Positions 11,213-54,638 of a stretch of DNA of 64,000 nucleotides are shown here, one piece after another. How positions within the stretch are numbered: the stretch's first letter is position 1; each line of letters begins with the position of its first letter. Source of the stretch: Dehalococcoidia bacterium (GTDB taxonomy: Bacteria; Chloroflexota; Dehalococcoidia; GIF9; UBA5629); the NCBI GenBank assembly GCA_034435835.1, contig DAOTWF010000002.1, positions 64,395 to 128,394 on the forward strand. Reading direction: 5' to 3'. Below the pieces are notes generated by a model that was not told where the DNA came from, made no database searches, and saw nothing but the letters and a program-made list of their open reading frames with translations. The translations under genes and the position numbers were made by a program.

Positions 11213-11559
11213 TGGTGGAGGCGGGGGAGAGTTGAACTCCCCGTCCAGAAGAAGGTTGCCAGAATCACCTACAGGCTTAGTCAGCTGCTCAATCTCGCCC
11301 AGCTACCATCCGCTGACCGCTAATAGCCAGGCCAGTCGATAGCTCTTAGCCGCCCCCTATCGACGTCGGGAACGGTGCACCCTAACTTTTCGGCACCCAG
11401 TCCCGACCCATCAGGGCGAGGTCAGGCTGGATGTGCAGCCCTAATTAGGCTGCGATCGGAACTGCTTCGGCAGTTGTCTTTTGCCACCTGTTTAACGAGG
11501 TTGATGGCACCTCGGCCTGCTATTCTGTAGGCCTTCCCCTGTCGACGCCTCGCGCCCCC
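11213..11559 (-). ncRNA. ssrA: tmRNA (SsrA)
   Basis: The minus strand starts GGGGGCGCGAGGCGUCGACAGGGG and ends GGGGAGUUCAACUCUCCCCCGCCUCCACCA. This gives a tRNA-Ala-like acceptor stem with the G3:U pair, a T-arm and CCA. An internal frame ...GCC GAA GCA GUU CCG AUC GCA GCC UAA encodes ...AEAVPIAA*, a typical hydrophobic -AA tag end. It lies immediately downstream of smpB. Confidence 0.9.
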
Positions 11560-38854: not shown

Positions 38855-39257
38855 TGTAATCCCTTACCACCGCTCTGATTGCGCTCGCTGCCAGCTCCGC
38901 ACAATGATAGTTACCATCTGGCAGCCCCCCCAGCGCAGCACAGATATCCTGTCCGTCTATTCTCAGAGCCTCAGCCACATCTTTATCTTTGATCAGTTCA
39001 GTAGCCATACTTCCGCAGGCAACGGTGGCGCCGCAGCCATCTGTCCAAAACGCAACTTCAACTATCTTCGCCTCCTTCACCCTAATCCACATCTTCATTA
39101 ATTCGCCACAGCGACTCCTTACAGCAACAAAACCATCGGCGTCATCGATGCTACCTAGATTGCGAGGGTTCATCGCATGATCGATCACCGTTCCGGTATA
39201 TATTTCCCTCATTCGCGCCATCATCTGCTTTTCAAGCTCATCAAACTGGTCTCCCAT
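38790..39257 (-). CDS. NifU/IscU-like Fe-S cluster scaffold (N-terminal-domain type)
   Basis: Start placed at the ATG at 39257 behind GGAGGAG. Cysteine ligands lie in RSRCGELM, TDGCGATVACGS and YHCAELAA. Confidence 0.75.
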   Translation of the reverse strand: MGDQFDELEKQMMARMREIYTGTVIDHAMNPRNLGSIDDADGFVAVRSRCGELMKMWIRVKEAKIVEVAFWTDGCGATVACGSMATELIKDKDVAEALRIDGQDICAALGGLPDGNYHCAELAASAIRAVVRDYIATRREPWRKAYRRPHGFVDV

Positions 39258-39490
39258 TCCAGAACTCCTCCAATCGCCCGAATTCAGGAAACAAATATGT
39301 CGCCAGCACAACGACAACAGCAGCCTAATGTAGCGCTTAGCTCACTCTATCCTTAGCATACCAACCCTGCCAGCAATACGCAACCAAATTTGAGCGGCAC
39401 CATAAAGTCACTAGCCGCGCCGACTACCATACAGTTATTCCCCTGTGTACAAAGCCAGGCGCACTATGACGTGGCGAAGTCGGTGAGATG

Positions 39491-40951
39491 CTATCTCCTG
39501 AGCGTCTTTACAACCTGCCCGTCTCTGTTTCTTAAATTGACTTCGAGCGGCATCCCGCCTGGGAGAGCATGCGTGGCACATGCCAGACAGGGGTCATACG
39601 GTCTGAAAGCCATCTCCACCATATTTAACAGTCCTTCCTTAACCTCGGGACCCTTTACAAACCCCTGAGCCGCTTTCTTTACCGAGACACAGATAGGGGC
39701 AGCATTGTGCTGGGTGGCAACGATGAGGTTTACCTTGGTGACCAGTCCGCGGTCATCAGTCTCGTAGTGATGGATCAGTGTGCCACGTGCCGCTTCCACA
39801 CAGCCAATACCTACTTTCTTCAGGCGCAGGTTCATATTGCGTATGTCTTTGCTCGTCAGGAGTGGTTCACTGGCTATACGCTGCATATCCTCAGCAGCCT
39901 GCAGTGCTTCTATTAATCTCGCCCAGTGATAAGCCAGCGTGTGATGGCTTGGTTTTCCGCCAAGCCTGTCAAACATTTCTTCATATTCTTTCTGTGCCAG
40001 AGGAGTAGCCATACCGTTGGCTACATTCAACCGAGCAAGCGGACCAACACGATACAGCGAGGTTTTCTCTCCCTCTATTAGCCCATTCCAGCCCAGTTTC
40101 CTGAGATGAGTCAATCTGATATATGTCCATGGCTCAACCCATTCGCCTATATACTCAATATAGTCCTTCGGGTCAAACAATGCATACTGGTCGCCCTTGG
40201 GGTCGGTAACCCGTAATTTACCTTCGTAGAAATTGACCCTGTTGTTGGCATCCACCAGACCCATGTCGTAAATGTGCAGCTTGTAAGCATCATTCAGAAT
40301 CAGATCAAGGTACTTTTTCTCACCGAGGACAGCCTCTTTGAACAGCTTCAAGGTGAACTGAGCAAACTCCACAGAATCATTGGCTATGTCCCGAATCCAC
40401 TTCCTCTCCTCCTCGGTAACACCTCTGGGTACTCCACCAGGTAATCCCCCCTCGGGGTGGGGTGCTTTACTGCTAACAAGACGTATGATGTCCCGGCAGC
40501 GTTTCCTTATATCAATCACCTTCTTGCCGATGTCCAACCCTACTCTCCCGATGACTCCCAAGATGTTTCTAACCGCCGGGTCGGCATCCGGCCCGACCAC
40601 GAAGTCAGGTGCTGAAAGGAAAAAAAAGTGGATATAATGATCTTCGACCATGAAAGCGTTATAGTGCAGCTGCCTCACTAGCTTCGCTGCTGGCGTCGGT
40701 TCCACATTATAGACGTCATCAACTGCCTTGGTGGACGCCATATTGTGAGGAGTGGGGCAAACGCCGCAGATATTCGGGGTAATACGTGGCATTTCCTCCA
40801 CAGGCCTGCCAACGCAGAATCTTTCAAAACCCCTCAACTCCACCACCTGCCAGTAAGCATCCTCCACATTACCCTTGTTATCCAGAAAAATCTCTATCTT
40901 GCCGTGTCCTTCCAGTCTTGTAATCGGGTTTATGCTTATGTTCTTTGCCAT
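39491..40951 (-). CDS. [NiFe] hydrogenase large subunit, Mvh/Vhu-like (group 3c-like)
   Basis: 486 aa. N-terminal RLEGHGKIEIFL and CGVCPTPH. C-terminal DPCLACATHA followed by a cleavable-type extension of about 24 aa. Confidence 0.88.
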   Translation of the reverse strand: MAKNISINPITRLEGHGKIEIFLDNKGNVEDAYWQVVELRGFERFCVGRPVEEMPRITPNICGVCPTPHNMASTKAVDDVYNVEPTPAAKLVRQLHYNAFMVEDHYIHFFFLSAPDFVVGPDADPAVRNILGVIGRVGLDIGKKVIDIRKRCRDIIRLVSSKAPHPEGGLPGGVPRGVTEEERKWIRDIANDSVEFAQFTLKLFKEAVLGEKKYLDLILNDAYKLHIYDMGLVDANNRVNFYEGKLRVTDPKGDQYALFDPKDYIEYIGEWVEPWTYIRLTHLRKLGWNGLIEGEKTSLYRVGPLARLNVANGMATPLAQKEYEEMFDRLGGKPSHHTLAYHWARLIEALQAAEDMQRIASEPLLTSKDIRNMNLRLKKVGIGCVEAARGTLIHHYETDDRGLVTKVNLIVATQHNAAPICVSVKKAAQGFVKGPEVKEGLLNMVEMAFRPYDPCLACATHALPGGMPLEVNLRNRDGQVVKTLRR

Positions 40952-40975
40952 TTCTCCCTGCTCCTCGTAGTTTCG

Positions 40976-41941
40976 TTACGTTCTTTTTCGCACCAAAGCC
41001 GAAACAGGTGCCGAAAAACGATAAAGGTAGCCCGTCAGATCGTCCAGCTTCTCTACCAGCTCCCTGAACTGTTTCTCGTCCTCAACATCGAGCATGGAGG
41101 CCAGTGCAGAAATGAACTTCGATCCGGCATCTTTCACTCCCTCCACCGGACCAAAACAACCACGACATGGTATGTTTATTTTCATACAGACGTCTCCACA
41201 CCCGGAGCGAGTAGCTGGTCCCAAGCAGAGTATTCCCTGTGCCAAAAAACAGGTATCAGGGTTAGCCTCAACTTCGTGGATTCGCTTAACATCCTTCAAT
41301 GCAATCCTTGGGGGCTTTGTCTTGTTCCGCTCACAGGTGTCACACAGGGCTTTGTGCGGGGCAAGAGTCGAGCCCCTTGGCGGCAGCTTACCAGCAAGAA
41401 CCGCATTTACTGCGCTAGCTATGAGGTCTGGTGGCGGTGGGCACCCCGGAAGGTAGTAGTCAACATCGATAATTTGGTTAAGCACATAGACCTGCTCATA
41501 GAACTCGGGCAGTGTCAACTCTTTACCGTCTACCCTACACTTCGGCTGGGGGTAATTCCCTTTCGGGTTCACCACAGTGGGCGCATCCCGATATACCCAG
41601 TTGAATATATCCTCCTTTGTGGTGAAGTTCGCCAGCCCGGGCGTACCCCCAAAACAGGCACAGGCGCCAAAAGCGAGAACTAACTGTGACTTCTGCCTCA
41701 GCAGCCTTGCCACCTCTTCATGGTCAGAGTTTCTGACATGCCCGTTGATTATACTGAGTGCAATCTCTTTGTCTTTCATGCCTTCGGCATGGTGATACTT
41801 GAAGTCCATAGCCACGGGCCAGAGGACAAACTCCACCGCATCGGCTACCTGTAGAACAGCCTCATTCAAATCAACAACAGCCTCGTCGCAGCCACCACAT
41901 CCGCCCAACCAGCAAATTGCAATTTTTGGTTTGGTTGCCAT
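40976..41941 (-). CDS. [NiFe] hydrogenase small subunit, MvhG-like
   Basis: 321 aa. Proximal cluster ICWLGGCGGCDE, and distal clusters CDTCE... and CLGPATRSGCGDVC...CRGCFGP. Confidence 0.85.
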   Translation of the reverse strand: MATKPKIAICWLGGCGGCDEAVVDLNEAVLQVADAVEFVLWPVAMDFKYHHAEGMKDKEIALSIINGHVRNSDHEEVARLLRQKSQLVLAFGACACFGGTPGLANFTTKEDIFNWVYRDAPTVVNPKGNYPQPKCRVDGKELTLPEFYEQVYVLNQIIDVDYYLPGCPPPPDLIASAVNAVLAGKLPPRGSTLAPHKALCDTCERNKTKPPRIALKDVKRIHEVEANPDTCFLAQGILCLGPATRSGCGDVCMKINIPCRGCFGPVEGVKDAGSKFISALASMLDVEDEKQFRELVEKLDDLTGYLYRFSAPVSALVRKRT

Positions 41942-41959
41942 CTCTACTCCTCTTTGTAT

Positions 41960-42403
41960 TTATTTCTTCGCTCTGGCACCAGCCATCTCTCGGCTAGGCA
42001 ATCGTATGCGCTTCACTGGACCAAGCCTGCGTAGGGTCTCACTCATCTCCCTAACATAATTCGGTATTTGCTTCCCTTCAGGGTCTGTAGACAACACTAT
42101 ATGCACCCGCTCTGGCTCAATGCCATAGGAACTGAGAACCTTACGCAACAGGTGGACACGCTTTCTGGCTTCGAAATTGCCATCCTGGTAATGACAGTCC
42201 CCCTCAGGACAGCCCAGAATGAGCACACCATCAGCTCCACTCTTGAAGGCATCGATGATGTGCGCGGCATCTACCTTACCACTGCATATTATTGGTATCC
42301 AGTTCTTTATCTGAGCGGCGAGCTCAGCCTCGTCCCCCAAATAGCCCCAGCTGAATTTGCAGGAAAAACATACTAACTTTGGATCAAAGTTGCTCATATT
42401 CAT
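41960..42403 (-). CDS. MvhD-like hydrogenase iron-sulfur subunit
   Basis: 147 aa. Contains VCFSCKFSWGY, ICSGKVD and GADGVLILGCPEGDCHYQDGN, the MvhD/FlpD family pattern. Confidence 0.85.
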   Translation of the reverse strand: MNMSNFDPKLVCFSCKFSWGYLGDEAELAAQIKNWIPIICSGKVDAAHIIDAFKSGADGVLILGCPEGDCHYQDGNFEARKRVHLLRKVLSSYGIEPERVHIVLSTDPEGKQIPNYVREMSETLRRLGPVKRIRLPSREMAGARAKK

Positions 42404-42415
42404 CCTCCTGATTTA

Positions 42416-44206
42416 CTATAAAGAAGCATAGACTCTGTCAATTCTCTCATAGGTAGCATCGTCGACCATCTTCCTTGCGTCCGAGGGACAAGCAGCTACA
42501 CACATGCCACACGACTTACAGCGGAACATATCGGTAGTAGAGACGATCTTCCCTTCCCGTTCCACCAGATGCGCCGACTCATAGTTGCAGGAGTATACGC
42601 AAATCCCGCACCCGCTGCATCTCTCCTCATCGACTTCGACAGAATAGAGCGACTTTTCAAAGCCGATGGAGATACACGCTTTACAGGACACACAGGGACC
42701 ACAAGTGGCACACCGCCTCGCCTCCTCTATGGCCTCCTCAAGCGTCAGTCCCCTTTCAAACAACTGAAAATGCATTCTTTGCTCCGGTGGTATCCATACC
42801 ACCTCGGTCGGCGGCTTATAACGGGATCGCAGCGGAATATCGAACTTCTCATAATCCCGCCTTCTGCCCTCGGTCATATTGAGACCCCTGATATACCGAT
42901 GGATTGATTCCGCAGCTTCCATACCTTCTCTCATCGCTTCCACCATGAACCCTATCCTGCGGACATCACCGCCGATGTAGACATCAGGGAACTTGAGGCT
43001 CTGCAACGTATGGGGGTCCACAGCCAGCCTGCCCCGCTCATCAAGTAAATTTTCGTTCTCCAGTATTACCCTATCAGGCCCCTGTCCTATAGTGATTATC
43101 AGCACATCACCGCTCATTTCTACGGTATCCGACAGGTCAAATTTGGGGTTGAATCCCTGGTCATCAAACACACATGTACACTTGGGAGAGATTATCTTCT
43201 TGAACCTTCCAGCTTCCCCGATAATTTTTTGCACACCGCGCGAATAGACAATCTGGATGCCCTCCTCCCATGCACCCCTGATCTCCTCCTCATCGGCAGG
43301 AATACCATCCCTAGAGCTCTTATCCTCACACTCCAGACACACCATGGTTACCTCACCACCAAGACGTCTCGCCGACCGGGCGACGTCAAAGGCCACATTC
43401 CCCCCACCGATAACGATCACCTTTCTATACTTGAAATAGTCCGGCTCTATGTTCCCGTGGCTAATCTCATAAAGTAGCGTATGCCCGTACAGCACACCGG
43501 ACAGATCCTGTCCTTCCACTACCTTGCCATCGAAGGTTAACACCCGGGGGTAAGGGGTGCCTTTTGCCAAGAAGATAGCCTTATATCCCTGCATTCTCAA
43601 TCTTTCAAATGTGAGCTTGCCCTTGCCCACTTCAGCATTAAACTTAATATCTATGCCAGCAATCCTCACTAAGTTGTCGAGCGTGGTTCTCAGGACATCA
43701 TCGGGTAAACGGTAGTCCGGTATAAGCCATAGCGCCCCACCGAGTCTGTTCGACGCTTCAAAGATCGTCGGCCTGTATCCCTTCTTTGCCAGATAGTAAG
43801 CACACATCAGCCCGCTGGGGCCACCGCCTATGATGGCAATATTCTCCTTATCCTTGACTACGTTCAGCTCCTCTTTCTGATTCAGATAGTCAGTATAGTA
43901 ATCAGAGAGAAACCTCTTGAGTAGTCTCCGCCTGATAGACCCGCCTTTGGTCTTGTAGTTACACTCCAGCTCACAAAGCCCGCAGATATAGCCGCAGATG
44001 TTAAAGAAAGGGTTCTTTTCGTAAAGATAATCACCTATTTGGACGATGCCTTCCTTCGCCCTATCGATATCACGGGGCAGCAAAGAGATAAGCACATTCG
44101 TCCGCTGGATATCTTCGTTAATGGGACACCGTATCTGACAGGGGGGTAACAGTTGCTTCACTGCCTCCTCGACATGAGCCCCACCAGTCGTAACCGTTTG
44201 CCACAT
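42416..44206 (-). CDS. GltD/NfnB-like NAD(P)H-FAD oxidoreductase with C-terminal 2x[4Fe-4S] ferredoxin domain; first gene of the Mvh-type operon
   Basis: 596 aa. RBS AAAGGAGG. N-terminal Cys region (CQIRCP..., CGYICGLCELEC). Rossmann IAIIGGGPSGLMCAYYLAKKGY, then GGALWLIPDYRLP. Second Rossmann VIVIGGGNVAFDVARSA. C-terminal CATCGPCVSCKAC, CSGCGICVYSC and CKSCGMCVAACP. Confidence 0.8.
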   Translation of the reverse strand: MWQTVTTGGAHVEEAVKQLLPPCQIRCPINEDIQRTNVLISLLPRDIDRAKEGIVQIGDYLYEKNPFFNICGYICGLCELECNYKTKGGSIRRRLLKRFLSDYYTDYLNQKEELNVVKDKENIAIIGGGPSGLMCAYYLAKKGYRPTIFEASNRLGGALWLIPDYRLPDDVLRTTLDNLVRIAGIDIKFNAEVGKGKLTFERLRMQGYKAIFLAKGTPYPRVLTFDGKVVEGQDLSGVLYGHTLLYEISHGNIEPDYFKYRKVIVIGGGNVAFDVARSARRLGGEVTMVCLECEDKSSRDGIPADEEEIRGAWEEGIQIVYSRGVQKIIGEAGRFKKIISPKCTCVFDDQGFNPKFDLSDTVEMSGDVLIITIGQGPDRVILENENLLDERGRLAVDPHTLQSLKFPDVYIGGDVRRIGFMVEAMREGMEAAESIHRYIRGLNMTEGRRRDYEKFDIPLRSRYKPPTEVVWIPPEQRMHFQLFERGLTLEEAIEEARRCATCGPCVSCKACISIGFEKSLYSVEVDEERCSGCGICVYSCNYESAHLVEREGKIVSTTDMFRCKSCGMCVAACPSDARKMVDDATYERIDRVYASL

Positions 44207-44419
44207 AGTCAGCCTCCTTTAATTTTCAGATATTTCAACCGCCAGAAAACAGGCAAGGCCAAAATATATTACACAATCAAACCCTGACTATGCAAGATAC
44301 AGCGTTGTGAACAATAACGTAGAACTGCAGATAAGAAGAGTTTTGAGCCGTAACGGCAGTATCCTCGCTCCTGCTCAGGCGCAGACAAACTGAAGCCAGA
44401 ACAACCTACGAAGTCTCGG

Positions 44420-45886
44420 TCATCTTGTCAATTCACTCAAAACCGCACCATCTACGGAAACAAGCTGCACCACAAAAGGCATCTGCCCCAGGGCATGGGT
44501 CGAACAAGAAAGACACGGGTCATAACAACGGATAGCCACCTCGATTCGGTTAAGGATACCTTCAGTGACCTTGCCATTCTTTATGAACTCTTTAGCCACT
44601 TCATATACTGCCTTGTTCATCGCCCAGTTATTGTTCCCCGTAGCTACAATAAGGTTGACCTTTAGAATTTTGCCAGTATCGTCCACCCAGTAGTGATGGA
44701 AAAGAGTGCCACGTGGCGCTTCGATAACCCCCACACCCTGCTCATTATATTTGTCTGAGCCTACGATCAAGTCTGTAGCGCAAATATCCTTGTCCTCAAG
44801 TAGCTGCTGGGCCCTTTCCAAAGCATAAAGCAGTTCAATAAGCCGCGCATAGTGATAATACAGGGATCCCTCAACGATGCCGTTCTTACCCAACTGCTTG
44901 AAGTTTCTAAACTCAGATTGAGCGCGATATGTAGAGATCGCTTCGCAGACGTTCAAACGTGCCAATGGACCTGTTCTGTAGACGCCTTTAGGATAGCCAT
45001 GCTTCTTATAGAAGGGGAACTTAAGATACGACCAGTCTTCTATATATTCGGCAACTATCTCGAGGTAACAGGCGGGGTCAAACTGCTCTTCAAGAACCTT
45101 TCCCTCCGCATCCAACAGCCTCAATCTACCATCATAAAGCTCTAGGTTGTTGTCTTTATCTACCAGGCCAAGATAGCCAGTGGGGAAACTGGCGCAAGTG
45201 CAGGCTAAGTCCCTGTTTCTGTCATAGTATTCTTTGATTACAGCTATAGCTGTTTCGGCATCAGCTATCGCCTGGTCAACCTGTCTAAGAAAGCGGTCAC
45301 GTTCAGTGGGTGAAAATGCCGTATTCATTCCGCCGGGCACTGCACCATTGGGGTGAACCTTCTTCCCGCCGATCGCCTGGATGATTGCCTGCCCGAAGCC
45401 ACGAAGCCTTACACCTTTAACCGCAAGCTCGGGGTTTGCCTCGATCAACCCCACAACATTCCGTTTTGCCGGATCAGAGTCTAGCCCCAAAAGTAGATCC
45501 GGGCTGGCAAGGTGGAAGAAATGGAGGGCATGTGATTGAATATACTGCCCCATGTGCATCAGCTCACGAAGCAGCTTCGCTGGACGGGTCAGTTCCACGC
45601 CGAGAATGGCATCACAGGCTTTGGCAGAAGCCAAATGGTGGCTCACCGGACAGATACCACAGATCCTAGGAGTGATGACAGGCATCTCCCAGAATACCCT
45701 GCCTTCACAGAACTTCTCAAAACCACGGAATTGAGTTACATGGAACCGGGCGTCGGTAACATTGCCGGCGTCATCGAGATGAATGGTCACTTTCCCGTGA
45801 CCCTCCAGCCTGGTTACCGGATTTATCTCGATGGTTTTACCAGCAGTAGCAACTCCGCTGGCTCTTCCTGCAACTTTGGTAGTCAT
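44420..45886 (-). CDS. hoxH: [NiFe] hydrogenase large subunit, HoxH-like (group 3d-like)
   Basis: 488 aa. Contains [25 protein letters not shown], and C-terminal [10 protein letters not shown] plus an extension. Confidence 0.88.
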
Positions 45887-45898
45887 GTCTCACCCCTT

Positions 45899-46435
45899 TT
45901 AATCGAAACGCATCATATCGCTGGGTAAAACGGGTATCCTGCCCTCCAGCAGCTCCTTTAGAGCATAGAGGATCACCTTGGCATCTGGCGGACACCCCGG
46001 TACATAACAATCTACTTTTACCACATGGTTCACGGGCTTCACCTGATCCAGCAATGCCGGCACGCCTGGGGGACGCGGTATCTTCCCCTCATAGTTACTT
46101 TCAGCCTCGATATAGGCACGCCTCAACACGTCATCTTTGTCAAATGTACTACGCATGCCACAGACACCGCCAAAACAAGCGCAATCGCCCCATGCCATCA
46201 AAATCTTGCAATTAGCCCGCAGCTCCTTCAAAACTTCTTCTTCCTCGGTATTACCCACAGAGCCCTCCACTATGCCCACATCAACCGGTGAAAACTCCTT
46301 GACATCCGTAATAGGGCTCCGGGTGAATTCCACCGCCTTGACCAGCTCCACTATTGCCTCATCGATATCTAAAAATGACATGTGACATCCAGAACAAGCT
46401 TCCAGCCAGACTGTAGCTACCTTTACTTTCGCCAT
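45899..46435 (-). CDS. hoxY: [NiFe] hydrogenase small subunit, HoxY-like
   Basis: 178 aa, the short HoxY size class. Contains VWLEACSGCHMS and GDCACFGG. Confidence 0.85.
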   Translation of the reverse strand: MAKVKVATVWLEACSGCHMSFLDIDEAIVELVKAVEFTRSPITDVKEFSPVDVGIVEGSVGNTEEEEVLKELRANCKILMAWGDCACFGGVCGMRSTFDKDDVLRRAYIEAESNYEGKIPRPPGVPALLDQVKPVNHVVKVDCYVPGCPPDAKVILYALKELLEGRIPVLPSDMMRFD

Positions 46436-46458
46436 GGATATAACTCCCTAATCCTGCA

Positions 46459-48453
46459 TTATTTTTTGAAACGCCTCTCAATCTCGGTGATAAGTTCCCA
46501 ATCAGCGCGGATCTCCTCAGGCGGCCTCACAAGCCGTGCAACACGCTTATTAACACCATCCAGAGTAACATAGGTTGCGCTAACCTCCATCCAGAGCGGT
46601 GAAGGCAATACCACGTCAGCTTGAGAAGCGATTTCCGACACAAAACTGGTTTGAACCACAAAGAACTCTACCCCATCCGGACGGGAACTCAACCCCGCCA
46701 CCTCCGCCTGGGAATCACCCAGCAACAGATACAGAGCTTTTATCGAACCGTTCTTAGACAGCTTTGAAATACTAAACTCGCCTTCATCAGCAATACCCAG
46801 ATCCCAGAGTCCAGCGCTGTTTCCACCGGGCTTCAACCACAGAGTTCTGGCACTGCGCTGCTTATCTTGACACACTGTCACTAAGTCAAAAAGCAGCGCC
46901 ACCAGCTCTGGATCCTTGTATTGTAGAATACCCTGCCCGTAGACCACAACGCATTTCCTCGCCCTGCCCAGCATGGAAGCTGCAGCCTTAAGATCATCAT
47001 GATCCAGCCCGGTGCGTTTGCATACATCCGTTGGCTTAATGTCCTTGAGGGATGTCACAAGATCTTTGATCGAAGGGGAATCAGCAGCCAGCCCCTCGTC
47101 CAAAATCACTTTTATCAGAGCCTTCAAAGCAAGAGCTTCCTTACCCTTATCAGGCCGTAACCATAACGTTGCTTGATAAGGAAAACCATTCTCCGCCGGA
47201 TCGAACACAATTAGGTTTGCCCTTCTCCGTCTGATGGCACGAACCATATACGAGCCGGCGACCGGATGGGTTTTTAGGGGATGAGCACCAACCACAAAGA
47301 TACAATCGGCGTCCAGAACCTCTTCAAGGGAAGAAATCTCCACATCCTTCAAACGCTTTTTGGCCTGGGAAGATTGTAATACTTGCCTGACAAGTCTGAA
47401 ATAATCACCGTCCAAGCTATCCACTTGCTTGCTGCCCACTGTTAGTGTAAGAAAATCCTTAAAAGCTTTAGCGGACTCGTTGCTGAGCTGACTTGAGACA
47501 ATACCGGCTATGCTGCTAGGGCCGTGGCGTGCCTTCGTCTCCCTCAGCCTTGCGGATACCAGATCTAGCGCTTCGGTCAAGGAGCAGGGCTCCAACTTGC
47601 CATTTCTCCGCTGCAAAGGAGTGAGAACACGCTTAGCAACTGCCTTCGCTGGGGTGAAACGCCCCCTATCACAGAGAAGACCACGTGGTTTTGTCAGGTC
47701 GGGACTATCGACTTTCACCACCCGATTGTCCTTAATGTATGCCCTGACCTCACATCCAATACCGCATATCGGGCAAACGCTCATCACCTGTTCACATTCT
47801 GAGACTCTGCCTTTATAGGCACTCGCTTTGGAAAAGATAGCTCCTGTGGGGCAGACCTGGAAACAAGCCCCACAAGATATACACGAAGACTCCCCTAGCG
47901 GCTGTCCTAGATCAGCGACCACCTTGTCTCTCCAGCCACGGTAACCGAAATCCAGAGTGTGTATACCGGCAAATTCGTCGCATGCCCTTATGCAACGTCC
48001 ACAAAGAATACAACGATTGTGGTCAACAACGATATACTTATTTACCGAGTCTACTGGCAGCGAGGGCCAAGATAACGGATAGCGCAAGCTGTCCATCTGG
48101 TAGTGATAAGCTAGAGCCTGCAGTTCACACTCCCCGCTTGCCACACATTGTGCACAGAGATGGTTCTTCTCAGTGAACATCAACTCGAGGATTAGACGGC
48201 GGTATTTTTCCAGCCTTTCGGAGTGGGTCTGCACTACCAGACCATCGCGTGCTGGATAGGTACACGCTGGCATAGGGCGCCTCTCCCCTTCTATCTCCAC
48301 CAAACAGAGCCTGCAAGCAGCAACATCGGTTAAGCCATCATAATGGCAAAGTGTCGGCAAATCGATACCATTCGCTCTGCAGATCTCAAGGATGGTGAGT
48401 CCCTCGCCTCCTCTAACTTGTTTACCATTGATAGTAAGAGTTATCTCAGCCAT
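46459..48453 (-). CDS. HoxU-position subunit of NuoG/FdhA-like type ([2Fe-2S], [4Fe-4S] clusters plus a truncated, apparently cofactor-less molybdopterin-oxidoreductase-like domain)
   Basis: 664 aa. Contains CHYDGL...CRLCLVEI, NHLCAQCVASGECELQ, CILCGRCIRAC, CISCGACFQVCPTGA and CPICGIGCEV. I saw no Cys/Sec active-site motif in the molybdopterin-like part. Confidence 0.8.
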   Translation of the reverse strand: MAEITLTINGKQVRGGEGLTILEICRANGIDLPTLCHYDGLTDVAACRLCLVEIEGERRPMPACTYPARDGLVVQTHSERLEKYRRLILELMFTEKNHLCAQCVASGECELQALAYHYQMDSLRYPLSWPSLPVDSVNKYIVVDHNRCILCGRCIRACDEFAGIHTLDFGYRGWRDKVVADLGQPLGESSCISCGACFQVCPTGAIFSKASAYKGRVSECEQVMSVCPICGIGCEVRAYIKDNRVVKVDSPDLTKPRGLLCDRGRFTPAKAVAKRVLTPLQRRNGKLEPCSLTEALDLVSARLRETKARHGPSSIAGIVSSQLSNESAKAFKDFLTLTVGSKQVDSLDGDYFRLVRQVLQSSQAKKRLKDVEISSLEEVLDADCIFVVGAHPLKTHPVAGSYMVRAIRRRRANLIVFDPAENGFPYQATLWLRPDKGKEALALKALIKVILDEGLAADSPSIKDLVTSLKDIKPTDVCKRTGLDHDDLKAAASMLGRARKCVVVYGQGILQYKDPELVALLFDLVTVCQDKQRSARTLWLKPGGNSAGLWDLGIADEGEFSISKLSKNGSIKALYLLLGDSQAEVAGLSSRPDGVEFFVVQTSFVSEIASQADVVLPSPLWMEVSATYVTLDGVNKRVARLVRPPEEIRADWELITEIERRFKK

Positions 48454-48455
48454 TG

Positions 48456-51400
48456 TTATTCTCCTACCTCAAGATCACATCTCAGACACCTTCCGGCTTC
48501 CCGTCGGGCTTCTTCCTCAGTAAGCGGGAGCTCGATTTCCTCAAAGCTCCGTCGCCTCTTTTCCACAGGAAGCGTTGGTGCCTCAGAACGGGGCTGCTCT
48601 TTCCATATCTCCTTCGCTACATCGATGGGCAGCTCTTCAGCAAGCTGGGCTTTGGGTTTAAGTTCATGTAGTTCTACTCTTGATGTATCCCCTCTGAAAT
48701 ACTTATCTATTGCTATGGCAGCCCTCCTGCCATCGGCGATGGCATAAATCACCATATCCGGACCCCTGACAAAGTCACCGCCAGCAAAAATGCCGGAAAT
48801 ATTGGTAGCCAGAGTATTAGGGTCAACACGAAGCCTGTCCCATTCTGTCCGCTCCAGCCGACTGTCTGGCGGTAAGAAGGAAAGGTCTGGCGCCTGTCCC
48901 ACAGCAGCAATAACAGCGTCCGCCTCAACCACGAATTCAGAACCCGGGATGGGAACCGGCCTGCGGCGCCCGCTGGCATCGACATCGCCAAGCTGCATAC
49001 GGACACACTGTAGACCGGTCACCTTCCAGTTTTCACTCAGTATCCTTACCGGGTTCACAAGGAAATTGACCTTAACCCCCTCAGCAATTGCCCCTTCATA
49101 CTCCACCTCAGACACCGGCATCTCTTCTCGTGTGCGACGGTAGTAGATATTAACCTCCTCTGCTCCCAGTCTGAGAGCGGCACGCGCTGAGTCTATAGCG
49201 ACATTTCCACCACCGATAACCGCTACCCTCCTCTCAATCTTCGTTTGCCGCCCAATCTTGACATCGCGGAGGAATGTCAGACCGTAATATAGGCCGCTCA
49301 ACCCCTCGATTTCACCCGGGATTCCCATTCGCTGACTTTTTTGTGCCCCGGCAGCGATAAACACAGCTTCATAACCGCTCTGCAAAAGGTGTCTGACTCT
49401 GAAGTTCTCGTTTATCGGCGTGCTATACCTTATTTCCACTCCCCGTTTGGCTATGTAGTCGATCTCTTGCTCGATGACCTTGCGCGGCAAACGGAACTCG
49501 GGTATAGCCACCGCTAGCATACCACCACCCACGGGCAGCGCCTCAAAGACCGTTACCCCGTATCCCATCTGCGCTAGAAAATAGGCACAGCTGAGACCTG
49601 TCGGACCAGCTCCAACTATAGCCACTTTCTGCGGCTTCGTTCTGGAGAAGGGCTGGGGCGGTGAAACCTTATCCAGATTGTCAAAATACCAGTCGGCTGC
49701 AAACCGCTTAAGTGCCCTGATTGCCATGGATGAGTCTATGTCCTTGCGCCGGCACTTGTACTCACAGGGATGGTGGCATATCCTCCCGCATATTGCTGGA
49801 AACGGGTTCCGTTCTCTAATGGTCTCCACCGCCTCCAGGTACTCCCCGGCAGCTATATGAGCAATATACTTTGGTATATTAATACCCACCGGGCAGGTGT
49901 GCTGACAGGGCGATGGAAACAGCGCCTGACAGACTGCTGCTGGACACCTCTTGTCCATAATGTGGGCTTCATATTCCTCACGGAAATGTCGTATTGTGGT
50001 GAGCACGGGATTAGGAGCTGTCTGACCTAGGCCACACAGAGAGGCTGAACTTATCATCTCTGCAAGCTCTTGAATAATTGCTAAGTCGTCTGTCGTGCCC
50101 TCACCGTTGGTTATCTTGGTCAATAGCTCCAGCATTTTGGGGACGCCGGCACGACACGGGGTACACTTGCCACATGATTCGTCCCTGGTAAACTGGAGGA
50201 AAAACTTAGCAACGTCGACCATGCAGCTGTCCTCGTCCATCACCACCAAGCCACCAGATCCCATTATTGCACCCAACGAAGTTACCGCCTCGTAGTCAAC
50301 AGGTGTGTTAATGTGCTGTGTGGGGATCACACCCCCAGAGGGACCACCTATTTGCACCGCTTTAAATCTTCTGCCCTCGGGCACACCACCACCAATATCG
50401 AAAACGATCTTCGCTAAACTGGTTCCCAGAGGCACTTCGACCAGTCCCGTGTTGTTGATCTTACCTACCAGGCTGAAAGTCTTGGTTCCTTTGCTGCGTT
50501 CTGTGCCCACACTGGTAAACCAGTCTGCTCCGTTCAATATGATTGACGGCACATTTGACCATGTCTCTACATTATTGATAGTAGTAGGCTTACCAAATAG
50601 CCCTTTGTTAGCCGGAAATGGCGGGCGCTGTCTCGGATTGCCACGCTTTCCTTCAATAGATATTAACAGTGCAGTCTCCTCACCACAGACAAAAGCACCG
50701 GCTCCAGGGAAAATGTCTATGTCAAACTCGAAGCCAGTGCCGAGGATGTTCTTACCTAAAAGACCATACTGACGAGCTTGCTCTATGGCATGACTCAGTG
50801 TTTCAATCGCTAGAGGATACTCCGCCCTTACATAGGCATAGCCCTGGCGCACGTTGCCTATAGCATAAGCACCAATCACCATACCCTCAACGACTGAGTG
50901 AGGGTTGCCTTCCAGAACCGAGCGATTCATATAGGCACCTGGATCGCCCTCATCGCCATTGCACACCACGAACTTCTCATCTCCGGGCGCGTTACGGACA
51001 AATCTCCACTTTGTCGCCGTGGGGAAACCAGCACCACCACGTCCTCTCAAACCAGCTCGTCTAATCTCCTCTATAACATCTTCAGGACTCATTTGAGTCA
51101 AAACCTTTGCTAGCGCAAAGTAGCCATCTCTAGCAATATATTCTTCGATAGACCAAGGATCGATAAAACCGTTATTGTGAAGCACTCGTCTCTCTTGAGC
51201 CGCATAAAACTTGATATCGGGATAAGCAGGAATAGTTTTGCCAGTAACAGGGTCATGGTATACAAGCCGCTCCACCACCTGCCCTTTGAGGAAATGCTCT
51301 TTTACAATCTCTACCACATCCTCAGGTTCCACCTTGGTATACAATATGTCACCAGGGTTAATTATGACTATCGGCCCCATCTCACATAGCCCGTGACAAC

Positions 51401-51635
51401 CAGTGGTTACGAGTTTTACCCTCCCCTCGATCCCATTCTCTTTTATTGCAGCTTCAAATGCCTGCGCTACACGCCCAGCCCCTGATGCTGAGCACCCGCT
51501 GGCGCGGCAAAGCCTAACCTGAATTTCAGGCGCACTGAGAATCTTAGATGAATCCCTATCCATGCGCACTTCAAAAGTGGGTAAAACCATACTTTTTATA
51601 GTTTTCAGGTCACTAATCGATGCCACTTTGATCAT
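48456..51635 (-). CDS. HoxF/NuoF-like NADH-FMN subunit fused to a complete GltD/NfnB-like NAD(P)H-FAD module
   Basis: 1059 aa in one open frame. N-terminal thioredoxin-like [2Fe-2S] (CRASGC...GCHGLC). NuoF core (GLRGRGGAGFPT, VVCNGDEGDPGAY, GAFVCGEETALL, ESCGKCTPCR). From about nt 49925 downward comes the GltD-like part (CQHTCPVG, CGRICHHPCEYKC, VAIVGAGPTGLSCAYFL, AIPEFRLP, VAVIGGGNVAIDSA), ending in RCLRCD. Confidence 0.85.
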   Translation of the reverse strand: MIKVASISDLKTIKSMVLPTFEVRMDRDSSKILSAPEIQVRLCRASGCSASGAGRVAQAFEAAIKENGIEGRVKLVTTGCHGLCEMGPIVIINPGDILYTKVEPEDVVEIVKEHFLKGQVVERLVYHDPVTGKTIPAYPDIKFYAAQERRVLHNNGFIDPWSIEEYIARDGYFALAKVLTQMSPEDVIEEIRRAGLRGRGGAGFPTATKWRFVRNAPGDEKFVVCNGDEGDPGAYMNRSVLEGNPHSVVEGMVIGAYAIGNVRQGYAYVRAEYPLAIETLSHAIEQARQYGLLGKNILGTGFEFDIDIFPGAGAFVCGEETALLISIEGKRGNPRQRPPFPANKGLFGKPTTINNVETWSNVPSIILNGADWFTSVGTERSKGTKTFSLVGKINNTGLVEVPLGTSLAKIVFDIGGGVPEGRRFKAVQIGGPSGGVIPTQHINTPVDYEAVTSLGAIMGSGGLVVMDEDSCMVDVAKFFLQFTRDESCGKCTPCRAGVPKMLELLTKITNGEGTTDDLAIIQELAEMISSASLCGLGQTAPNPVLTTIRHFREEYEAHIMDKRCPAAVCQALFPSPCQHTCPVGINIPKYIAHIAAGEYLEAVETIRERNPFPAICGRICHHPCEYKCRRKDIDSSMAIRALKRFAADWYFDNLDKVSPPQPFSRTKPQKVAIVGAGPTGLSCAYFLAQMGYGVTVFEALPVGGGMLAVAIPEFRLPRKVIEQEIDYIAKRGVEIRYSTPINENFRVRHLLQSGYEAVFIAAGAQKSQRMGIPGEIEGLSGLYYGLTFLRDVKIGRQTKIERRVAVIGGGNVAIDSARAALRLGAEEVNIYYRRTREEMPVSEVEYEGAIAEGVKVNFLVNPVRILSENWKVTGLQCVRMQLGDVDASGRRRPVPIPGSEFVVEADAVIAAVGQAPDLSFLPPDSRLERTEWDRLRVDPNTLATNISGIFAGGDFVRGPDMVIYAIADGRRAAIAIDKYFRGDTSRVELHELKPKAQLAEELPIDVAKEIWKEQPRSEAPTLPVEKRRRSFEEIELPLTEEEARREAGRCLRCDLEVGE

Positions 51636-51651
51636 TTGGCTTCCCCTTCGA

Positions 51652-52167
51652 TTATTCGTATGAACTCAATATTTCTTTAAGTTGACTTGGCTTCACCTTC
51701 CGGTGAATATCCTGACCGACCGTTATCACAGGAGCCAATCCGCATGCACCAAGGCACCTTACAGTACTCAGCGAGAACTTGCCGTCGGCAGTGATCCCTT
51801 GCAGCTCCAAGCCGAAATCTTTTCTTAAGGATTTAAGAATCCTCTCAGCTCCCTTAACATAACAGCTTGTACCGAGACAGACTTGAATGACATATTTGCC
51901 CTTGGGAACGAGGGAGAAGAAATGATAAAAGCTGACTATACCGTAAACCTCACTAAGTGGGATTTTCATCTGACTGGCAATGACCCGCAGCATTGCTGGT
52001 GGCAAATATCCCACAATACCCTGCACCTGCTGCAGCACCCGTATAATAGCACCAGCCTTACCGGAATTCTCCTCGATGACTCTGAGTATCTGCTGCCGTG
52101 TCTCAGGGTTGATAGCCTCCTCTGGCTTGACCATTGTATTAACGGTATCCGTCTTCTGCACAGTCAC
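51652..52167 (-). CDS. hoxE: HoxE/NuoE-like thioredoxin-fold [2Fe-2S] subunit
   Basis: 171 aa. Contains VCLGTSCYVKGA and VRCLGACGLAPV. Confidence 0.85.
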   Translation of the reverse strand: MTVQKTDTVNTMVKPEEAINPETRQQILRVIEENSGKAGAIIRVLQQVQGIVGYLPPAMLRVIASQMKIPLSEVYGIVSFYHFFSLVPKGKYVIQVCLGTSCYVKGAERILKSLRKDFGLELQGITADGKFSLSTVRCLGACGLAPVITVGQDIHRKVKPSQLKEILSSYE

Positions 52168-52625
52168 CCCCTTGTCGATTTTCGGTAGACAATAGTCAAC
52201 TTAAACCCACGCCGCACTCGCAGCCCGTATACACAACACACCTTTAAATTTAGTATCCTCAAACTCACAGCGCAAATACATCGTACTTTTTGCCTAGATT
52301 TATGCCGTACTTTCAGCCACCACCCAAAATAGACAACTCCAAATCTGGACGATTCCTCAACACGTCTGGTTAGATTGTATCATATAAGCACACAGAATAA
52401 ATAGCCGAACGGCATGATGAGGCAAATAAAAGGATATACCAGTCCAGTTACGCCGGCACTCGAGCCAGGATCTATAGGAGAGACCAACACTAGGAACAAA
52501 CAGCAGATCACATTGGAAGAATACCGGACTCTTATTCGAGAAAAAAGACCCTATCCTGGCTCTGCAACAACTCCTTATCTGTTATCGAACATAACGCCCG
52601 ATTTTGTGGGGTTGTGCTCATTAGG

Positions 52626-52832
52626 TCAACTCCTCGATAGAATAAAGCCAGCAACAAAGGCGATTGCAAGAAAGACTGCAAATATGATGGAAGCAGTCTC
52701 AATTGAAATTTTCAAAACTTTCTTTTTAGCCATAAAGTGGCGAGAGTATTCGCCATAAGTAATCAAGAAAGCCATCAGCGAGGCAACTAAGCCGAACGCA
52801 AATCCCATTATTACCAAAAAAGTGAATATCAT
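52626..52832 (-). CDS. Small two-TM membrane protein, translationally coupled to the dynamin-like gene
   Basis: 68 aa with two hydrophobic helices. Its ATG overlaps the upstream stop (ATGA). Confidence 0.5.
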   Translation of the reverse strand: MIFTFLVIMGFAFGLVASLMAFLITYGEYSRHFMAKKKVLKISIETASIIFAVFLAIAFVAGFILSRS

Positions 52833-54638
52833 TGCCGATCAAGCACCTTTTGAATTTCTTGAAGCTTGACCTCAAATGCATTGAGCTTCTCGAGTTCCTC
52901 ATTTATGCTATCAGCTTTCTGTATCCGCCGAGTTTGAGCTTCTTCAATGGCACCGCGGGTAGCACTGGCCAGCTCTTTTAGTTCTTTGTCGAGACCAAGA
53001 GAAAATCGATAAAAGGTATCTTTGATGTTTTGTTTTGTTTCCCACTGCAGGTTGCTGACGTTACGCAACACTATGGCTTCTATGTCCTGCTGCAGCCACT
53101 TCTTGATTCGGCGCAGAGCCACGCGGGGAGGAAGCAGCCACTCAAATATACCTCTTGGGATAGGACTCATGGCAACACTCCAGTTCTCGGTCACCCAGTA
53201 TGGCTCATGGCGTATCTCCAGTGTTTCTGAGCTTACACTAAGTGCAAAAGGTATATCGAAGAGATCTGCTGCCGTCCTCCGTATAATGTCAGCCAGAGCC
53301 TTAGCCTTTTCCTGATGGTTACTGAGCATTTCCTTAGTGTAATTATCAAGCAACTGCCTAGCTCTAGCTAGGCTTCCTTCAAACAAGCCTGGAATTGCCT
53401 CAGCTAATTGGTTTCGTGCCGTCTCATCCATAGATCTGAATACCACACGCGATTGCCAGATTGTCTTCAATGATTGGAGATAATCTGGATTTGGCCTCTC
53501 GAATTATCTTTGTGCACTCTTGATCCAGCGTTTCTATCGAGCGTTCCTTGTCACCCTTAAGTACATCTTGAGCCAATTGGTGCTGGTGCTCGACCTCCTC
53601 CAATTTTTGATTGAATACCACCAGGCAGCGCTCCAAATCTTCCATGGGAAGTGTGAGCGAACGCCTTTTCAGGTGCAGATGCAACAGGGCGTCTGCCAAG
53701 ATATCCATATATAGCCTGTTTAAGGACTTGTATCTTCCCTCAGCTAGAAACTTGACCAGATAGTTCTCTATATCAGACATCCCGCTACTTGCCCACAAGC
53801 GGTTATTCCCTTCAGCCTCGCCTCTAAGCCTTGGCGTGCCGAGATTGTAAAAATTGTCTCATGGCCATGAAATTGTAACTGCTCTCTAAGAACTGTTTGG
53901 AAAAATTCAATGGCTGCTCGGCGTTCGCCCTCATTGAGATAGTCTGCCTTGTTCATGATGAAAAAGACCCGGGCTGCTCTGTCACGAATTGCTTCCAGGA
54001 ATTCTATTTCTGCCTGAATTATGGGCGGGTCTGCCGAGACTACAAACAAAGCCCCGTCACATTGGGGTAAGAAGTTGAGTGTAACCCCGGTATTGTGTTG
54101 GGAGGTGGAGCCGATGCCCGGAGTATCAATAAGCACGACCCCGTTTTGCAGCAATTGAGAAGGATGGGCAACTTCAACACGCGACACGCCCAGATAATTC
54201 TTAGGGTTGCCTTCTTCGGTTACGTATTTGGTTAGAAATGCGTTTAATTCCTGCACATTTTCTGAATCACATTCTTCGATATGACCATCCAGAAAAATGA
54301 CCTTAATAATGCGTTTGGAACCAAATGACAGAAATATGGGGACTTGAGGTAGGCGGGATCACCGCTGCCGGGAGCAAGTCTTCTCCCAGAAGGGCGTTTA
54401 GCGGAGTGCTCTTACCTCGTTTAAACTGGCCAAGCACCGCCAGATTAAAGCGAGCCGACGTAAGCCGGCTTTCTAACCCATGGATGCGGTTTTGCTCGGG
54501 CGCAAACTCCTCGCCTAACTCACCAAGTAGCTTCTGAGTATGTCGAAGAACAACAAGAAGTTCCTGAGCATTGTCTTCCTGACAGGCTCCTGTTATGCAC
54601 GTAGTCTTTCCTGCCATCTCCTGTTTTTTATCGCTCAT
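52829..54638 (-). pseudogene. Bacterial dynamin-like GTPase, disrupted by three frameshifts
   Basis: Four consecutive ORFs (54303-54662, 53768-54256, 53424-53798, 52829-53470) together read as one protein of about 600 aa. G1 is GQFKRGKST, G3 is VLIDTPG, G4 is MNKAD, followed by a long helical stalk. Frame changes lie near 54341-54346, 53808-53815 and 53441-53455. Likely start is the ATG at 54638, behind AAGGAGA. Confidence 0.75.

Follow-up and report, generated by a model that had tools for sequence, protein, structure and literature searches.

Among the bifurcating enzymes of the Bfu family, the cofactors of the BfuB and BfuC subunits were described as conserved in all members, Nfn-like domains were placed in BfuA only, and six enzymes, from Synergistetes and Euryarchaeota, were the only NiFe-Bfu representatives listed (Schut et al., 2022). 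According to the same work the family is recognised by loops of the patterns CN[AG]DEGDPGA[FY]M[DN]R and GAGAFVCGE[ES][TS]AL, by the B2 hinge of three Cys and one His, which is kept in all 1558 Bfu sequences and absent from non-bifurcating homologues, and by a C-terminal ferredoxin-like domain of BfuB, which carries two CX2CX2CX3CP motifs (B3 and B4) and interacts with ferredoxin. Here we describe a five-gene hydrogenase operon from a Dehalococcoidia bacterium, located in a stretch of 64,000 nucleotides (hereafter the window; contig DAOTWF010000002.1, positions 64,395 to 128,394, assembly GCA_034435835.1). The B subunit gene of this operon, hydB, continues in frame into a cassette of the NfnL/GltD type with predicted flavin adenine dinucleotide (FAD) and NADPH sites, and this cassette takes the place of the B3/B4 ferredoxin-like domain and is not added to a complete subunit.

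The closest described system is the NiFe-HydABCSL enzyme of Acetomicrobium mobile (7T2R/7T30; Feng et al., 2022; PMC8880783), which has the five-subunit composition and the gene set in common with the window operon and whose flavin mononucleotide (FMN)/NADH site, B1, B2, B5 and C1 sites and HydA cluster motifs are all retained in the window enzyme. The A. mobile HydB ends in a ferredoxin-like domain of about 57 residues with B3/B4, the proposed ferredoxin site; the window protein has a cassette of 485 residues instead. The hosts differ as well (Synergistetes for the A. mobile enzyme), and, unlike in A. mobile, no HydD/HisK genes adjoin the window operon.

The enzymes of the Nfn-Bfu/StnABC group (S. 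ovata 8OH5, C. saccharolyticus 9BOV and T. sibiricus 9N5U) combine a BfuBC core with the same permuted NfnL-like cassette. In these enzymes as in the window protein the cassette is entered at "PC...CP", is left after "RCxxC" and contains a Lys-ligated cluster next to the FAD, and the window cassette is closest to NfnA of C. saccharolyticus (1e-120). A Lys ligand of this kind marks the electron-transferring, non-bifurcating NfnL-like modules of Bfu enzymes. However, the Nfn-Bfu/Stn cassette is inserted in the A subunit and brings mid-potential NADPH to the core, while the B subunit keeps B3/B4 and reduces ferredoxin; in the window the cassette is found on B, at the position of the ferredoxin branch, and the A subunit would bring in H2 via HydSL. 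Homologous modules with 2x[4Fe-4S], FAD and NADPH sites and the same FAD and YRR motifs are also known from NfnSL/NfnAB (T. maritima 4YLF and P. furiosus 5JCA) and from GltD (3e-102, 1e-86 and 8e-66, respectively). Compared with NfnSL, the window module has Lys in place of Glu, is without an NfnS partner and is fused to a NuoF-type subunit.

The operon and its fused B subunit

The five genes are arranged in the order hydC-fusion-hydA-hydS-hydL, all on the reverse strand and separated by intergenic gaps of only 2-23 bp (Table 1). For four of the five subunits the best match in the PDB was 7T2R. HydC had 7T2R as a close second (8a6t_C 4e-39, then 7t2r_C 4e-38), its top matches all being HydC/NfnC subunits of bifurcating Bfu enzymes, and it contains the ligands C97, C102, C138 and C142 of the C1 [2Fe-2S] cluster. 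HydA is collinear with residues 1-657 of the 692-aa HydA in 7t2r_A; it carries an N-terminal [2Fe-2S], a His-ligated [4Fe-4S], 2x[4Fe-4S], a Molybdop_Fe4S4 cluster and a molybdopterin-like domain without cofactor, with conserved Cys motifs of the A1-A5 type, and no Pyr_redox domain was detected in it by Pfam. HydS matched 7t2r_E over its full length (9e-63). In HydL the L1 (C76, C79) and L2 (DPCLSCSTH; C458, C461, H464) motifs are intact and are followed by a 24-residue C-terminal extension of the kind that is cut off in maturation. The ranking of its PDB matches, with the NiFe-Bfu chain 7t2r_D (1e-183, 615 bits) ahead of the Hox chain 5xf9_D (3e-137, 462 bits) and of MvhA (5odc_F, 1e-123, 417 bits), points to the same relationship. 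Neither a maturation endopeptidase nor hyp genes were found among the 49 window open reading frames (ORFs) scanned with Pfam, and a promoter/terminator scan of positions 44000-53000 gave counts at the shuffled expectation.

Table 1. Positions in the window of the fused operon, of the parts of its B subunit and of the adjoining genes
Feature	Position	Strand	Basis or remarks
hydC (BfuC/NuoE-like, 171 aa)	51652-52167	-	Pfam 2Fe-2S_thioredx 8e-48
hydB::nfnL-like fusion gene	48456-51635	-	1059 aa + stop
Fusion: N-terminal thioredoxin-like [2Fe-2S] domain (B5)	51261-51527	-	Pfam; 7t2r_B alignment from residue 7; Cys map
Fusion: NuoF-type core, residues ~150-557, with FMN/NADH site and B1	49965-51188	-	7t2r_B 5e-242
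Fusion: B2 hinge site, H558/C564/C569 (C471, T509 upstream)	49929-49964	-	Zn or [2Fe-2S] site diagnostic of bifurcating BfuB
Fusion: junction, residues 570-576 (QALFPSP)	49908-49928	-	Start point of the ferredoxin-like C-terminal domain in canonical HydB
Fusion: GltD/NfnL-type Fe-S domain, residues 577-651	49683-49907	-	C577, C581, C616, C620, C624, C628, K643 (LKRF)
Fusion: two-Rossmann FAD + NADPH module, residues 668-983	48687-49634	-	Pyr_redox_2 5e-33; alignments
Fusion: linker, residues ~984-1020, then C-terminal closing element, residues ~1021-1059	48459-48686	-	C1050, C1053
hydA (BfuA/NuoG-like, 664 aa)	46459-48453	-	Pfam; 7t2r_A 5e-115
hydS ([NiFe] small subunit, 178 aa, proximal cluster only)	45899-46435	-	Oxidored_q6 7e-30
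hydL ([NiFe] large subunit, 488 aa)	44420-45886	-	NiFeSe_Hases; 7t2r_D 1e-183
NfnL/GltD-like flavoprotein, 596 aa, extra C-terminal 2x[4Fe-4S] ferredoxin domain	42416-44206	-	NfnI-L 5jca_L 2e-52
MvhD-like	41960-42403	-	
[NiFe] small subunit of the second cluster, 321 aa	40976-41941	-	
[NiFe] large subunit of the second cluster, 486 aa	39491-40951	-	
NifU-like protein	38790-39317	-	Directly after the second hydrogenase
MobB	38273-38854	-	
Free-standing HoxU-like Fe-S protein, 231 aa	37496-38191	-	[2Fe-2S], NuoG-type 4Fe-4S, 2x4Fe-4S

An earlier note on this DNA, made from the letters alone, had placed the operon in the HoxE-F-U-Y-H type. While the neighbouring genes and their positions as given there were confirmed with Pfam, this assignment had to be given up: besides the matches to 7T2R, the A subunit is a 664-aa protein collinear with HydA and not a HoxU of about 240 aa. 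Hox enzymes of group 3d (e.g., H. thermoluteolus 5XF9) likewise join a soluble [NiFe] hydrogenase to a NuoE/F/G-like diaphorase (HydL 3e-137, HydS 4e-39). Their HoxF, in contrast to the window B subunit, is without the hinge His/Cys, has loops of the GAGAY[IV]CG and DEGEP types and ends after the NuoF 4Fe-4S domain; HoxU covers the N-terminal part of NuoG without the molybdopterin-like domain, and Hox enzymes have no FAD/NADPH module. A classical group 3d HoxEFUYH was therefore ruled out by the Molybdopterin domain in the long A subunit, by the hinge His/Cys and by the Bfu-type loops, the last two of which also set the B subunit apart from the Re Hox enzyme. In the NCBIfam search none of the nine proteins reached a curated cutoff, the HoxE and HoxU scores also staying below theirs.

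Of the sequence characters of BfuABC enzymes, the loops, the B2 hinge, B1, B5 and C1 are all present and only the B3/B4 domain is missing, which makes the enzyme a variant and not a canonical member of the family. BfuA-type clusters with a molybdopterin-like domain and group-3 HydS/HydL encoded together with BfuABC correspond to the NiFe-HydABCSL (type 3 NiFe-Bfu) enzymes. An assignment to Nfn-Bfu/Stn does not fit, the cassette being on B and not on A and HydS and HydL being present. The predicted product of the five genes is a cytoplasmic [NiFe] hydrogenase that belongs to the BfuABC (HydABCSL) family and has a variant B subunit.

The variant subunit is encoded by one stop-free frame of 1059 codons and a stop codon, on which ORF list and translation agree. 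Pfam recognised in this one chain, and in exactly the order that the earlier note had predicted, 2Fe-2S_thioredx (residues 37-113), Complex1_51K (191-363, 2e-42), a weak SLBB (388-436), NADH_4Fe-4S (474-558, 2e-34), Fer4_20 (558-651, 3e-25) and Pyr_redox_2 (670-969, 5e-33). All sequence motifs quoted there were recovered, and its description of a chain in a [NiFe] operon that joins a NuoF-type FMN/NADH module to a GltD/NfnB-type FAD/NADPH module was borne out, both modules being complete and the second not degenerate. The NuoF-type core contains GRGGAGFPT at residue 198, CNGDEGDPGAY at 225 and ESCGKCTPC at 486, with C488, C491, C494 and C534 as ligands of the B1 [4Fe-4S] cluster; the B5 [2Fe-2S] ligands are C43, C48, C80 and C84. 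By comparison with Suppl. Fig. 10 of Schut et al. (2022), the NADH loop VCNGDEGDPGAYMNRS at residue 224 and the FMN loop GAGAFVCGEETALL at residue 311 are of the Bfu type and not of the Hox/Nqo/Hyd1 type. Residues C471, T509, H558, C564 and C569 align one-to-one with C438, C476, H525, C531 and C536 of A. mobile HydB. At position 476 the A. mobile protein has Cys and the window fusion Thr, the residue of most Bfu enzymes (Schut et al., 2022, Suppl. Fig. 10). The FMN site of the fusion retains the acidic pair GEE. Glu183 of E. coli NuoF disfavours NADPH. The NADP-specific enzyme of C. autoethanogenum has GES at the GEE position (Schut et al., 2022, Suppl. Fig. 10).

Directly behind the hinge the similarity changes. 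The alignment to 7t2r_B ends at fusion residue 573, which corresponds to residue 540 of the 597 in that chain, and the alignment to NfnA, StnC and NfnB begins at residue 575. The CxxCxxCxxxCP motif expected for B3/B4 was absent from the window protein and from each of the 81 fused homologues. We conclude from these sequences that the GltD/NfnL cassette replaces the ferredoxin-like domain and is no add-on to a complete HoxF, as which the earlier note had described it. The mechanistic reading changes accordingly with it: a cassette that replaces the ferredoxin-binding domain means that ferredoxin was probably lost and not joined by a further substrate. Best PDB matches of the cassette were 9bov_A (1e-120), 9n5u_A (2e-111), 4ylf_B (3e-102) and 8oh5_C (8e-100), and the same four chains served for the alignment of its Fe-S domain. 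The two-cluster Cys region proposed earlier is present, but its first two Cys (C564 and C569) belong to the B2 hinge, and the pair C1050/C1053 at the extreme C-terminus, which completes the GltD Fe-S domain, had been overlooked. This represents a circular permutation relative to classical NfnB/GltD: residues 1024-1054 align to the N-terminus of T. maritima NfnB (13-43), where "RCLQC" is found, and also to the part with which the NfnL-like cassette ends in NfnA/StnC. The cluster adjacent to the FAD carries the Lys ligand K643 (L642-K643-R-F) and not the Glu of bifurcating NfnSL. FAD motifs are GAGPTG at residue 675, E698 and R715 (PEFRLP; AIPEFRLP at 710), NADPH motifs are GGGNVA at 808 and Y832-R833-R834, and both sets agree with those of the aligned Nfn and Stn modules that bind NADPH; the two-Rossmann module also has GGD at 952. 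Two [4Fe-4S] ligand sets, the FAD pattern GxGxxG...E and the NADPH pattern GGGNxA...YRR, as characteristic of NfnL/GltD modules, are hence all found in the cassette.

An AlphaFold2 model built from 48 sequences had a mean predicted local distance difference test score (pLDDT) of 85 and a predicted template modelling score of 0.77. The pLDDT fell to 42-53 at residues 991-1010, within a flexible linker (~985-1010), and was 86-88 at residues 1021-1050, so that the Cys element is confidently placed. In a Foldseek comparison every PDB chain was limited to half of the model or less (TMq <= 0.52), the first half being matched by BfuB subunits and the second by NfnA, StnC and NfnL. The model is that of a coherent two-module fold, and it does not discriminate between the mechanisms considered below.

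A NuoF/HydB-GltD/NfnL fusion was not found among characterised enzymes, curated families and solved structures in a search which left subscription-only literature outside, in agreement with the earlier note. The nearest hints are the HydDB classification rule "GltD but not NuoF" and a published comment that NfnL-like domains are seen in proteins which carry the annotation FeFe hydrogenase group A. The anatomy is known in parts; for the combination, fused on B at the position of the ferredoxin branch, no characterised precedent was found.

Conservation, distribution and partners

An assembly or frameshift artefact at the junction (~49908-49964) was ruled out. When 5.8 billion proteins were searched, the full-length homologues (1003-1068 aa, 56-92% identity) fell into >120 distinct clusters at 90% identity, and many of these carry Chloroflexi or Dehalococcoidia labels. 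Relatives were also found in 564 stretches of a collection with one genome per species, and in the best 80 of these the fusion is uninterrupted in 80/80, which settles the question of the intact junction raised earlier. The closest relative in this collection belongs to an uncultured Dehalococcoidia metagenome-assembled genome (MAG; 94%). Hosts of the best 80 are spread over about eight phyla and comprise Dehalococcoidia, Planctomycetota, Myxococcota, Desulfobacterota, Verrucomicrobiota, Bacteroidales, Spirochaetia, Acidobacteriota, TA06 and Actinomycetes. A junction probe (residues 520-660) gave 75 representatives of 50%-identity clusters at E<=1e-30, a count that indicates only the order of magnitude because many of the matches are gene fragments; nearly all of the best 150 matches align on both sides of the junction.

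Conservation was examined in 81 fused proteins which are about 50% identical overall. The B2 ligands H, C, C and C are invariant in 81/81, the distance from C569 to C577 is exactly 8 residues in 81/81, and all of the commonest variants have Bfu-type loops. Residues of the two-Rossmann motifs are invariant save E698 (79/81) and G952 (74/81), and so are the Fe-S ligands of the cassette (C1050 in 81/81) save C616 (64/81), K643 (75/81) and C1053 (80/81). A degenerate GltD part is ruled out by these motifs, which are invariant or nearly so, and the fusion stands under strong selection.

The B5 site is more variable. Residues 43 and 48 (window ~51490-51509) are His and Gly in 17/32 proteins of the NiFe context and in 21/81 overall, at loci among L004-L036, while C80 and C84 are invariant and the window protein has all four Cys. 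With its first two ligands gone, the N-terminal cluster has in half of the family probably disappeared or given way to a metal ion, which is echoed by T. sibiricus NfnB with Zn at B5. A further difference concerns residue 509 (window ~50109-50111; C476 of A. mobile), which is Cys in 32/36 fused proteins of the FeFe context and Thr or Ser in 32/32 of the NiFe context. This pattern is opposite to the expectation from the A. mobile NiFe enzyme and bears on the debate about Zn or [2Fe-2S] at B2.

Partner genes were surveyed with tblastn and Pfam on the 80 loci. About 36 Dehalococcoidia loci show HydC-fusion-HydA-HydS-HydL in the order of the window, a recurrence beside [NiFe] subunits for which the earlier note had proposed a survey. 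The fusion is not specific to [NiFe] enzymes but is also widespread beside [FeFe] hydrogenases and occurs beside formate dehydrogenase (Fdh)/methylene-tetrahydrofolate (THF) reductase genes. At some 35 loci, from Planctomycetota, Myxococcota, Bacteroidales and other groups, an [FeFe] HydA with H-cluster domain comes after HydC-fusion or, in occasional cases, before it. Three loci encode Fdh-like A subunits, among them L030 (5073-13114; LT984855.1, uncultured Desulfobacterium) with the order FdhA-like (884 aa, Molydop_binding)-HydC-fusion-MetV-MetF, an order suggestive of a complex of formate dehydrogenase and/or methylene-THF reductase that is linked to NADH/NADPH and has its place in a Wood-Ljungdahl context. 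On the complete 1.03-Mb Dehalococcoidia chromosome CP070810.1 (L032, 7474-11096) HydC and the fused HydB stand alone as a pair next to genes for a two-component system, D-Tyr-tRNA deacylase, Fur and a Znu transporter, and no A subunit or hydrogenase was found within 8 kb. This pair may work by itself as an NADH:NADP+ transhydrogenase, or it may have a partner whose gene lies outside this region.

In a midpoint-rooted neighbour-joining tree, FeFe-linked members from several phyla formed one group, and a second group, mainly of Dehalococcoidia, contained NiFe-, Fdh- and a few FeFe-linked members mixed with one another; being without outgroup and support values, the tree is used here for no more than the coarse reading that fused B subunits of different partners are intermingled. 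Together with the varied contexts this indicates that the fused B/C pair behaves as a portable module. The fused BC unit may thus be regarded as a putative autonomous NADH/NADPH module, which combines with [FeFe] HydA or with Fdh-like subunits and MetVF, or stands alone. At one locus, a Myxococcota MAG (L054, 13882-16044), a gene adjoining the FeFe-type fused operon encodes a 720-aa protein with an [FeFe]-hydrogenase-like H-domain, HisKA and HATPase_c, which looks like a sensory (group C-like) hydrogenase-kinase.

Possible routes of the electrons

The published Bfu mechanism has a mobile C1 which carries the low-potential electron from the FMN/B1/C1 "flavobicluster" to B3/B4, the ferredoxin site of Bfu enzymes, and from there to ferredoxin. 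HydB and HydC of the window keep every element of this bifurcation core, i.e., FMN with the Bfu loops, B1, C1, B2 and, in the window protein, B5. Behind the hinge the two cassette clusters, which lead to FAD/NADP(H), are the only redox centres, and the most economical reading is a coupled H2 : NAD+ + NADP+ enzyme, in which NADP(H) would replace ferredoxin on the low-potential branch and to which we assign a probability of about 0.5. H2 is predicted to be activated at HydL, and its electrons would pass via the HydS cluster and the HydA chain to B1 and FMN, as in the solved A. mobile enzyme. In the coupled enzyme the mobile C1 of HydC would then hand the second electron pair to the cassette clusters, FAD and NADP+, and not to B3/B4 and ferredoxin. 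The reaction would be reversible, coupled (bifurcating/confurcating) and independent of ferredoxin (2 H2 + NAD+ + NADP+ <-> NADH + NADPH + 2 H+), NADP(H) (E' ~-380 mV) being the low-potential and NAD(H) (~-280 mV) the high-potential partner.

The consequences for H2 were calculated by our own Nernst arithmetic from the potentials in Schut et al. (2022; NAD -280, NADP -380, H2 -414 and ferredoxin -500 mV). The calculated equilibrium H2 is ~150 Pa for coupled NADH + NADPH, ~3 Pa for NADH alone, ~7 kPa for the reaction of H2 with NADP+ alone and ~15 kPa for the canonical enzyme with NADH + ferredoxin. With this poise the H2 threshold for NADPH production would be ~50-fold lower, and in the reverse direction NADH would be vented at ~50-fold higher H2 than with NADH alone. 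The enzyme could accordingly make NADPH from scarce H2, or vent NADH + NADPH as H2 in H2-scavenged sediments.

Several points weigh against this coupled reaction. The thermodynamic gain is modest compared with that of ferredoxin-coupled enzymes, and that C1 reaches the cassette clusters is something we infer. Ferredoxin may have another place to bind, either on the distal cluster of the cassette as in NfnSL or between the C-terminal domain of HydC and the cassette, and a freely reversible, uncoupled transfer from FMN to FAD would mean that no bifurcation takes place. The nicotinamide specificities, NADH at the GEE site and NADPH at the YRR site, are predictions from motifs. Moreover, about half of the homologues of the NiFe context have lost two B5 ligands, so that the core is not uniform across the family.

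The three functional classes named in the earlier note (a bifurcating or confurcating enzyme, an H2-driven transhydrogenase and a dual-cofactor hydrogenase) are all still live candidates, and two rivals of the coupled enzyme follow from the points above. One, which we consider rather unlikely, is a hydrogenase-Nfn hybrid that would couple four substrates (ferredoxin besides H2, NAD(H) and NADP(H)) and so run the HydABCSL + Nfn reaction within a single enzyme. Ferredoxin would dock on the distal [4Fe-4S], as in NfnL, or between the HydC C-terminal domain and the cassette, and the FAD might act as a second bifurcation site. The homology of the cassette to NfnL, whose two clusters lead to ferredoxin (4ylf_B 3e-102, 5jca_L 1e-86), speaks for such an enzyme, as do the invariance of R715, the counterpart of the arginine at FAD-N5, and a core with all elements thought to generate the low-potential electron. 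Yet the operon encodes no NfnS-like partner for a high-potential branch from the FAD, the FAD-adjacent cluster has the Lys of the non-bifurcating Bfu-type cassette and not the Glu of NfnSL, and in 81/81 the fused proteins are without the domain for which structures of Bfu enzymes have shown ferredoxin binding. Next in our ranking, and unlikely, comes an uncoupled dual-cofactor hydrogenase, in which electrons from H2 would reach FMN/NAD+ or FAD/NADP+ independently and the BC pair on its own would work as an NADH:NADP+ transhydrogenase. It would account for two complete nicotinamide sites with different specificity motifs, and the lone pair of HydC and fusion at L032 suggests that FMN-FAD exchange is useful in itself; under standard conditions, the reduction of NAD(P)+ by H2 thermodynamically needs no bifurcation. 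What a simple relay would not need are the strictly conserved signatures that separate Bfu from Hox/Nqo/Hyd1 subunits (hinge, loops and B5 domain) and which the B subunit keeps, and the fixed 8-residue distance from hinge to cassette mirrors the gated arrangement of the C-terminal domain.

That the GltD-like module binds no nicotinamide as substrate and is an electron donor to another enzyme, of the GltD/GOGAT or PyrD type (a "glutamate-synthase-linked" hydrogenase), or that the fusion is a non-functional relic, appears very improbable to us. GOGAT and DPD do employ GltD-like modules as subunits for electron input, and the GltD-linked [FeFe] subgroup that HydDB recognises would agree with a donor role. 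No glutamate-synthase large subunit or other acceptor-enzyme domain was detected by Pfam in the 49 window ORFs, however, and the NADPH motifs of the cassette stay invariant while the partners vary between loci; a relic is excluded because the ligands are kept across ~50% sequence divergence.

Adjoining genes and meaning of the fused subunit

A second [NiFe] hydrogenase cluster (39491-44206, reverse strand) starts 213 bp downstream of the operon. It is a Mvh/Vhu-like (group 3c-like) hydrogenase with a GltD-like partner in place of HdrA. The second Rossmann fold of this 596-aa flavoprotein is without YRR and has "VCLECED", for which reason it may use NADH or no nicotinamide. Both [NiFe] large subunits of the window carry C-terminal extensions after the DPCxxCxxH motif. 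The second cluster adjoins the fused operon at nine other loci, being located downstream at L001, L003 and L006 and upstream on the opposite strand at L021, L023, L028, L031, L035 and L049. The free-standing 231-aa HoxU-like protein encoded further downstream may serve either hydrogenase as a partner in electron transfer. Housekeeping genes (trp genes, ftsA/ftsZ, mraZ/mraW, ribonucleotide reductase and NrdR, priA, uvrC) make up the remainder of the window, which also includes smpB with transfer-messenger RNA (11213-11559), tRNA-Gly, tRNA-Lys and a tyrosine recombinase (35664-36560).

The Bfu family has so far been defined by an "absolutely conserved" ferredoxin-reducing BfuBC core, and the fused variant keeps this core and swaps the docking domain. 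Hundreds of environmental genomes contain this swap, which occurs with catalytic partners of three kinds. At present annotation misfiles these enzymes, both by the HydDB rules and NCBIfam and under names such as "NuoF" or "FAD-dependent oxidoreductase". Tentatively, and at somewhat less than even odds, we regard the fused HydB::NfnL subunits as an unrecognised, widespread Bfu branch in which NADP(H) replaces ferredoxin, that is, a bifurcating/confurcating core which works on pyridine nucleotides only (NADH + NADPH <-> third substrate) and is coupled to [NiFe] hydrogenase, [FeFe] hydrogenase or formate dehydrogenase/methylene-THF reductase modules. If this holds, the H2 and formate thresholds and the NADPH supply of many uncultured anaerobes would be set by a reaction outside current metabolic models.

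The coupled reduction of NAD+ and NADP+ by H2, or its reverse, would be a new type of reaction in anaerobic bioenergetics, and the H2 thresholds predicted for carriers of the fusion, including the abundant Dehalococcoidia and Planctomycetota of sediments, would shift. The fused enzymes would provide a natural experiment on the possible couplings of the low-potential branch of the flavobicluster and, if the coupled reaction is the true one, would be attractive H2-driven regenerators of both NADH and NADPH.

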